64,000 nucleotides of DNA. It comes from Eledone cirrhosa (Eukaryota). The stretch covers positions 26,908,001 through 26,972,000 of the forward strand of contig OZ024741.1 of assembly GCA_964016885.1 (NCBI GenBank), read 5' to 3'. This document shows, piece after piece, positions 10,390 to 11,474 of this stretch (position 1 is the first letter of the stretch; the number at the start of each line of letters is the position of its first letter). The notes beneath the pieces were generated by a model, which did no database searches, was not told where the DNA came from, and saw only the letters and a list, made by a program, of their open reading frames with translations. Position numbers and translations under genes: made by a program.

Positions 10390-10677
10390 AGATAAAACGC
10401 GTAGATTACTTCCCTTGCTTTTATCGAGAATCTCTAATTGTAATACGTGACGTATTCTATTCTATAGCGATTGGGTCTTCAAAATGTTTATTATAAACAT
10501 ACAGAATATTTTCGAATATTCTATGTTTGTCTTCACATATATATCGCTATTTCAGAGCATTAAATCCAAATTCTAATTTCTGCCGGACCGGCTACCGCTC
10601 TTTCAAACAGTTCCTGTACACAGCTAAGTATTCTATAAGTCTCTAGCTGTGTCGTTCTCGATAAAAGCATTGGATAT

Positions 10678-10721
10678 GTAATCCTGATGATTTCTAATAA
10701 GAATGAAAACGCGTAGATTAC
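10678..10721 (+). ncRNA. Minimal type I hammerhead (R1 copy with an extra A in GAAA)
   Basis: GTAATC-CTGATGA-TTTCTAATAAGAAT-GAAAA-CGCG-TA-GATTAC. Confidence 0.75.
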
Positions 10722-10990
10722 TTCCCTTGCTTTTATCGAGAATCTCTAATTGTAATACGTGACGTATTCTATTCTATAGCGATTGGGTCTTCAAAATGTT
10801 TATTATAAACATACAGAATATTTTCGAATATTCTATGTTTGTCTTCACATATATATCGCTATTTCAGAGCATTAAATCCAAATTCTAATTTCTGCCGGAC
10901 CGGCTACCGCTCTTTCAAAACAGTTCCTGTACACAGCTAAGTATTCTATAAGTCTCTAGCTGTGTCGTTCTCGATAAAAGCATTGGATAT

Positions 10991-11033
10991 GTAATCCTGA
11001 TGATTTCTAATAAGAATGAAACGCGTAGATTAC
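10991..11033 (+). ncRNA. Minimal type I hammerhead (R1)
   Basis: GTAATC-CTGATGA-T-TTCT-aata-AGAA-T-GAAA-CGCG-TA-GATTAC. Confidence 0.9.
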
Positions 11034-11303
11034 TTCCCTTGCTTTTATCGAGAATCTCTAATTGTAATACGTGACGTATTCTATTCTATAGCGATTGGGT
11101 CTTCAAAATGTTTATTATAAACATACAGAATATTTTCGAATATTCTATGTTTGTCTTCACATATATATCGCTATTTCAGAGCATTAAATCCAAATTCTAA
11201 TTTCTTGCCGGACCGGCTACCGCTCTTTCAAACCAGTTCCTGTACACAGCTGAGTATTCTATAAGTCTCTAGCTGTGTCGTTCTCGATAAAAGCATTGGA
11301 TAT

Positions 11304-11346
11304 GTAATCCTGATGATTTCTAATAAGAATGAAACGCGTAGATTAC
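11304..11346 (+). ncRNA. Minimal type I hammerhead (R1)
   Basis: Identical to 10991-11033. Confidence 0.9.
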
Positions 11347-11474
11347 TTCCCTTGCTTTTATCGAGAATCTCTAATTGTAATACGTGACGTATTCTATTCT
11401 ATAGCGATTGGGTCTTCAAAATGTTTATTATAAACATACAGAATATTTTCGAATATTCTATGTTTGTCTTCACA

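Follow-up and report, generated by a model that had tools for sequence, protein, structure and literature searches.

The stretch of DNA analysed here, called the window, comprises 64,000 nucleotides of the Eledone cirrhosa genome (assembly GCA_964016885.1, contig OZ024741.1, positions 26,908,001 to 26,972,000 of the forward strand) and contains a tandem array of a short repeat, named R1, with a hammerhead ribozyme motif in every unit. Coordinates are those of the window; positions within the unit are counted from window 10716, the first base 3' of the predicted cleavage site, and genome-wide counts refer to the 3.0-Gb assembly containing the window. The array and its ribozyme motifs are as follows.

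10390..11481, + strand: R1 tandem array, consisting of a unit end, three full units and a 141-nt partial unit
10404-10715, 10716-11027, 11028-11340, + strand: R1 full units of 312, 312 and 313 nt, each starting after GTA
10678..10721, + strand: hammerhead copy in which GAAA carries an additional A; the duplicate array described below lacks it
10991..11033, + strand: type I hammerhead with intact core, predicted cleavage after 11027
11304..11346, + strand: type I hammerhead with intact core, predicted cleavage after 11340
11472..11481, + strand: true 3' end of the array, at start site 1 (see below), mid-unit, running into (TA)n
11482..16250: (TA)n-rich target tract adjoining the array

The array amounts to 3.5 copies, differing at 2-4 positions, and its last, partial unit starts at 11341 and continues for 141 nt as far as the (TA)n. 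A gap of 200 Ns (10190-10389) conceals the 5' part and also cuts the hammerhead at 10390-10403, where G12 is changed to A. The original prediction, made from the letters of the window, described a repeated monomer of ~312 nt devoid of an open reading frame (ORF). The lengths of the three full units agree with it, as does the longest stop-free stretch, 56 codons in the six frames of a trimer, and no RNA polymerase III A or B box pattern was found in the unit. With units of 310-312 nt, a GC content of 0.34 (34%) and dispersal at many loci, R1 has the size and composition of retrozymes. Judged by its sequence, it is a non-coding hammerhead repeat of a known kind, a metazoan retrozyme not bounded by long terminal repeats (non-LTR).

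The R1 hammerhead consists of a 6-bp stem I with an internal loop, the core, a 4-bp stem II under a U-U pair, and a GUA triplet. Helix III is the palindrome ACGCGU with a 2-nt loop (self-duplex -7.5 kcal/mol), and because stem III offers only this 2-nt palindromic loop, a single unit should cleave poorly. Motifs with a palindromic helix III are reported to work as dimers within multimers but not in monomeric circles (PMC4209133), and R1 cleavage likely also needs two hammerheads. One hammerhead per unit had been claimed, and the motif does recur in each, but only the copies at 10991-11033 and 11304-11346 have an intact core; the extra A at 10678-10721 is either a mutation or a homopolymer error. 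Rfam gave no match for R1 at the gathering score, the HH9 type I hammerhead matching at E 0.01 with 22 bits, below the cut-off of 52. One core variant is present in 612 exact genome copies.

The monomer folds far better than its shuffled versions, both as a linear molecule (-76 kcal/mol, z -4.98, 0 of 100 shuffles as good) and as a circle (-71.3, z -5.3, 0 of 200), the circular comparison being the check proposed with the original prediction. The minus strand folds equally well (z -5.7), so the z-score cannot pick the strand. The proposed 15-bp stem between 11040-11054 and 11281-11295, extending stem I, was found in its place, and the further pairings were recovered at 11088/11167, 11127-11146 and 11244/11271. 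The viroid-like character attributed to the monomer stands as regards the fold, which is branched and ~60% paired, but stops there, as a core search revealed no minus-strand hammerhead in R1. The closing stem and two hairpins are kept in a 320-nt sister family (L135-L164, L204, L206), whose older and more diverged copies can be aligned with R1 over the full monomer and share its central module.

11040-11055 with 11280-11295, + strand: 15-16-bp closing stem, an extension of stem I; in 8 of 16 pairs both partners differ from the sister family
11108..11146, + strand: two hairpins 5' of start site 1 (unit 81-97 and 100-119), with compensatory changes in the sister family

When four poorly aligned helices were left out of the 61 predicted pairs, 14 of 45 pairs were found to change on both sides between the two families, compared with 0-3 when partners were slid. 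The ACACAGCT/AGCTGTGT stem is not conserved in the sister family, and the sister hammerhead differs in its U3-A8 core, GUC site and longer palindromic helix III. The hairpin 81-97, itself of low predicted probability (0.15), was preferred to the minimum-energy helix 90-97/120-127 for its conservation with compensatory change. Variation within R1 also bears on the ribozyme. Of 34 distinct locus-wide variants, the 43-nt ribozyme region contains 14, while its 13 core positions contain none (p 0.006 within this region); those in the region affect N7, loop II, the 10.1 position and, as wobble swaps, stem I. Sporadic variants do fall in the core (11 of 194), and their slight excess at the cleavage junction (6 of 194, p 0.012) is too weak to be used. 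Inherited variants sparing the catalytic core suggest that the ribozyme is needed in the R1 cycle. Apart from this, unit positions 190, just 3' of a GC-rich hairpin, and 276 (312-nt numbering) show recurrent sporadic changes in unrelated loci and are possible copying-error hot spots.

R1 arrays are found at more than a thousand genome sites. Exact junctions at position 168 number 130 for a 312-nt form and 1,034 for a 310/311-nt form, and the manner in which arrays meet the flanking DNA defines three further features of the unit.

11159..11168, + strand: start site 1, unit 132-141, an AU-repeat loop complementary to the (TA)n target
11163..11183, + strand: invariant 21-nt motif, the same in all subfamilies, lying between the start sites, with 21,050 exact genome matches; also present in the 320-nt sister family
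11192..11195, + strand: start site 2, unit 165-168

For the 312-nt form, 39 loci were scored and 38 fetched, the 39th being the window's own. Ends at 116-141 were assigned to site 1 and ends at 165-174 to site 2, the wide limits of the former allowing for (TA)n runs that frequently begin a few bases too soon. Two divergent arms were seen in 33 of 38 loci (one of these with a gap at its end), and 27 of the 32 readable two-arm loci have one site-1 and one site-2 end. The 310/311-nt sample comprised 40 loci chosen by their site-2 end (hits 10-49 of the 1,034 site-2 junctions); wherever both ends could be read (32 loci), the opposite arm ends at site 1. The rest run beyond the fetched stretch (three), are one-armed (four, one of them at a gap) or have a site-2 arm of 19 bp (one). 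In neither subfamily sample did any locus carry the same start site at both arms. The target replaces C133 in 56 of 73 site-1 ends (89 loci), which indicates that the target covers the AU loop when copying starts near 132-135. Site-2 ends show 2-4 nt of microhomology and lie 11-12 nt past a conserved GAGCA, in R1 and the sister family alike.

These junctions resemble those of Penelope-like elements (PLEs). The stretch between sites 1 and 2, borne by one arm only, forms a PLE-type tail of 27-35 nt, PLE partners having ~30-40 bp; the inverted arms correspond to their inverted 5'-truncated copy, and (TA)n to their AT-rich or (TA)n target. The R1 flanks are microsatellite, where no empty site was seen and target site duplications are unreadable. 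At the inner side the arms end uniformly over the unit (Kolmogorov-Smirnov p 0.21), with 2 of 64 ends lying 5 nt or less from the cleavage site; short overlaps are frequent at inner junctions. The lengths of the two arms, ranging from 0.2 to over 19 turns, are uncorrelated; the longest arms exceed 22 turns, and arms cross the predicted cleavage site many times. Fixed paired ends and inversion at dispersed loci are not the pattern of a satellite amplified in place. Contigs derived from reads (three runs of one sample, which behave as DNA and possibly come from the assembly's own sample) contain unit-(TA)n joints at 141 and 169 and one flank junction, the flank being covered by a single 1.8-1.9-kb read contig of depth 6-7 that runs into an R1 arm. 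No RNA run was among those listed as containing R1, which counts neither for nor against its expression. Scans of metagenome and viral contigs, one pattern each, gave 0 matches to R1.

The second line of evidence is the uniformity of each insertion. In seven 310/311-nt loci, 63 of 65 full units belong to the type of their locus, six types being represented; in 31 of the 40 further loci, those with >=2 full units, 228 of 278 units have the locus majority type, and 19 types occur. Both arms have the same monomer type in 21 of 22 310/311-nt loci, 19 of which are non-trivial, the chance of agreement being 0.076 per locus. In the 312-nt form, the A/G allele at position 2 agrees between arms in 27 of 28 loci, and four rarer variants, seen in six loci, are present in all the turns of both arms that cover them. 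Even short arms of 1-3 turns carry the locus variants across the inversion. Loci differ from each other at ~3 positions, as opposed to very few differences within a locus, and the sporadic rate is 0.07-0.2% per base. A single monomer type in both arms of a locus implies that each insertion passes through one monomer, which is then copied repeatedly.

It is therefore proposed, with considerable confidence, that R1 spreads as a monomeric RNA circle copied round and round by a PLE reverse transcriptase-endonuclease from both ends of a DNA break. The array would be transcribed by read-through; neighbouring hammerheads, as the palindromic loop III and the selection on the core suggest, would pair and cut after GUA, releasing monomers of 310-312 nt. 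Stem I and the closing stem would bring the two ends of the monomer together for a host ligase to seal, and the resulting circle, having a single hammerhead, should be stable. The enzyme would then cut both strands of (TA)n. The junctions themselves display the pattern of the next step, whose chemistry may be that one DNA end, base-paired to the AU loop, serves as primer at ~132-135, and the other, using 2-4 nt of microhomology, starts synthesis at ~167, at a distance of 11-12 nt beyond GAGCA. Both cDNAs would run for a random number of turns, and their free ends would be joined by microhomology or short fill-in into the head-to-head junction. Such two-ended priming is similar to the twin priming of L1 elements. 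A ligated circle would reconcile the apparent need for the ribozyme with the lack of a template end at the cleavage site, and the release of the monomer after GUA and its circularisation, as originally envisaged, gain indirect support from the core-sparing variants, the covariation of the closing stem and single-type arms crossing the cleavage site. A more specific version of the proposal, whose chances we regard as even, assumes that a dimeric PLE enzyme sits on one RNA circle with each subunit at its own start site, recognised by RNA-target pairing or by distance from the conserved motif, and copies simultaneously from both ends of the double-strand cut, rolling round the circle. If so, a single mechanism would account for tails, inverted copies and partial tandems throughout the PLEs, with R1 as its natural 310-nt minimal substrate. 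The general proposal is supported by data on a PLE protein, a predicted dimer, that cuts and extends both strands and starts at two nearby internal sites bounding the tail (PMC11167929).

Several other explanations have to be considered. The same enzyme and start sites could act on an uncleaved linear multimeric transcript of an existing array, which would also account for the fixed ends, the inversion and the crossing of the cleavage site. In accordance with this, hammerhead mutants had no effect on PLE insertion in vitro (PMC11167929), and periodic private variants are seen in L219, L242, L051 and L055. However, a linear multimer offers no way for a new variant to become fixed throughout both arms, as the 19 types in 31 loci would require; arrays copied from it would shrink with each round, yet arms exceed 22 turns, and it gives no reason for inherited variants to spare the core. 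We consider such a template unlikely. It is also conceivable, with a very low probability in our view, that a single inserted monomer grows in place and is homogenised by unequal crossing-over or gene conversion, as put forward for retrozymes (bioRxiv 10.64898/2026.07.22.740005), or that polishing of the assembly created the uniformity. Local duplication and conversion are indeed visible in a few long arrays, but growth in place does not account for dispersed loci at which two inverted arms meet at a random inner junction and have different fixed positions as their outer ends, and arms of only 1-3 turns already have locus variants common to both sides of the inversion. As to polishing, the joints at 141 and 169 and one flank junction are also present in the contigs derived from reads, which come from one sample, possibly the assembly's own. 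An inverted arm arising from self-priming or fold-back on an antisense template or the first cDNA, proposed for PLE inversions (PMC3846280), would fit the frequent short overlaps at inner junctions. It predicts the same outer end and linked lengths, whereas the R1 arms differ by a fixed tail, vary independently from 0.2 to over 19 turns and both abut the target (TA)n, which makes this origin extremely unlikely. Finally, the circle might additionally replicate from RNA to RNA in the way of viroids (the idea was raised in PMC7229834 and PMC4209133) and so generate the many monomer types. The ~3 differences between loci, the very few within them and the good folding of both strands agree with it, but R1 has no minus-strand hammerhead, and a rate of 0.07-0.2% per base over roughly ten DNA-RNA-DNA rounds would suffice for the diversity; RNA-to-RNA copying thus seems highly improbable.

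The RNA circle copied from both break ends is still the reading we prefer, but a number of observations weigh against it. Five of the 38 312-nt loci, including the window locus, are one-armed, and five of 32 two-arm loci break the end rule (L022, L031, L038, L046 and L049). Arms are discordant in L229 and L038, and the arrays of L051, L219 and L242 contain repeated private variants. Discordant arms and repeated private variants can be attributed to later duplication, conversion or two templates, and uniformity could also be introduced into arrays by polishing of the assembly. In the circle, stem II is predicted to pair with a probability of only 0.15, the covariation signal reflects mostly one split between two families, and, taken over the whole unit, the lack of core hits among the 34 locus-wide variants does not reach significance (p 0.24). 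In vitro, uncleaved RNA was the dominant PLE substrate (PMC11167929). The reading is drawn from genomic DNA, from which cleavage, ligation and circles are inferred. Furthermore, in the search for the PLE partner of R1, three families with intact ORFs were found to have tails of ~68-95 nt and no R1 central module.

The partner was also sought in other ways. The central module, used in BLAST and profile searches, matched no PLE in the fetched loci, most PLE families of the genome lying outside this sample, and neither clustering of (TA)n-flanked ends nor inspection of 16 one-armed or irregular loci named a partner. Two-site pairing itself is not confined to R1. In a very young PLE family with many intact 821-codon copies and a tail of ~88 nt, it was seen in all 12 loci with both ends read (16 fetched); one of its insertions occupies 51101-53360, within a stretch of two-armed PLE insertions at 49235-53415. 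This family and two more have DKT and RW-type motifs, and the CxCx5C linker is present in the two PLE families read to the end. Since these motifs are those of the (TA)n-targeting Hydra clade (PMC8557442), these three families are, by motif, placed in that clade. Pfam gave only sub-threshold GIY-YIG matches on the PLE pieces. The R1 core and stem II are alike with those of one genome PLE family at 26 of 28 aligned positions, and only those parts match. This family, represented by L105-L134 (17,666 matches), has a real helix III in its hammerhead and includes many tiny inverted pairs whose junction lies directly at the ribozyme. In L195 (2392-3566 and 6013-7173), a 1.4-turn sister-family arm is fused, with no (TA)n spacer, to a PLE site-1 end. 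This chimera, a single duplicated locus with two copies 3.6 kb apart, is possibly a template jump and a lead to the partner enzyme.

The R1 array has a second copy at the edge of the window.

1..97, + strand: 3' end of the duplicate R1 array (G000:C2:26906773-26908097), 4.3 turns, site-1 end

In full, this duplicate is one-armed with 4.3 turns, and its 5' end, at position 52, is joined to a truncated PLE end; the adjoining PLE has its own ends and a tail of ~95 nt. Both R1 arrays share locus-specific variants, and window 3-4924 recurs at 11387-16252 (92%). From their sequences, it is most likely either that a single insertion was assembled twice, on both sides of the gap, or that 11.3 kb were duplicated locally. 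The 11.3-kb duplication (window 1-16250) likely consists of two haplotypes assembled in tandem, and a long interspersed nuclear element (LINE) at about 4920-8370 is present in its first copy only. In L021 (1792-2773), both inverted arms of a PLE remnant are cut at the same point inside its hammerhead, and the right arm is fused directly to the 5' end of the R1 array.

Further repeats were noticed in the window. A second hammerhead family (33139-35127 and 45620-46410) has units of ~459-465 nt, the palindromic loop III CTAG and more variable ends, often near unit 238-251 or 291-309; a third (22012-23085 and 35361-35899), with units of 464-467 nt, is two-armed and ends near 231 and 299, leaving a 68-nt tail. 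Hammerhead-like cores with a long stem II and a TATG/TATA loop III lie at 23187, 26753, 28326, 30454 and 47647, near endonuclease-like frames. A 334-nt tandem repeat in two copies (41989-42656) contains a CAGGATGA-like motif, and inspection by eye recognised a LINE-type reverse transcriptase frame of 639 codons at 37727-39646 and, spread over several frames, a pol resembling that of LTR retrotransposons at 53679-57901.

R1 has much in common with the metazoan non-LTR retrozymes (PMC7229834, PMC7761336), which are tandem, low-GC, non-coding units of 150-450 bp with one type I hammerhead each and a predicted self-paired monomer; its weak palindromic helix III recalls the amphibian families that need dimers. 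The accounts of these elements on which we draw describe direct tandems and state that no conserved motif points to a partner, whereas R1 arrays form inverted pairs, end at two fixed points in the manner of PLEs, target (TA)n, have a conserved priming module and consist of a single monomer type at each insertion. For metazoan retrozymes, expression and circles have been demonstrated (PMC7229834), while R1 is known here from genomic DNA. No published description of paired fixed ends, inverted arms or clonal arrays was found for a retrozyme in a search that left aside subscription journals and supplements. R1 resembles the hammerhead viroids and satellite RNAs in size, the self-paired circle and the logic of dimer-controlled cleavage, but it is encoded in a genome, carries its hammerhead on one strand and has a DNA insertion stage, which sets it apart from viroids.

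The likeness to PLEs, both of the Hydra clade (PMC8557442) and Poseidon PAc (PMC11167929), includes the inverted 5'-truncated copy, the tail at one end, two nearby internal starts, the AT-rich or (TA)n target and the type I hammerhead. R1 differs from them in the lack of an ORF, the many-turn arms and the strict use of one site per arm, and its site 1 is complementary to the target, whereas the PAc starts are reported as non-homologous (PMC11167929). Chlamys elements such as MRC1, described as non-autonomous PLE partners, are like R1 in their multicopy head-to-tail insertions (PMC8557442). The enzyme that moves animal retrozymes, and whether circles are its template, are presented as open (PMC7229834, PMC7761336), and so is the origin of tandem, inverted and tailed PLE insertions (PMC8557442); on both, the R1 family provides base-level genomic evidence. 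Because it is a small defined substrate with two predicted start positions, R1 also lends itself to a direct in vitro test. If the AU loop guides one priming event, the choice of target may be partly set by RNA, and if the reading with a dimeric enzyme is true, the R1 insertions in the genome amount to over a thousand clonal records, each of an individual RNA circle. A preprint (bioRxiv 10.64898/2026.07.22.740005) arrives at the same class of mobilising enzyme on the grounds of co-occurrence and homology to pLTRs, proposes that units are amplified locally, and does not use the word 'tail'. Our argument is based on insertion anatomy, which speaks against local amplification. The circle as template and the link to PLEs are already in print as hypotheses, and what is new is how the R1 family sits in the genome.
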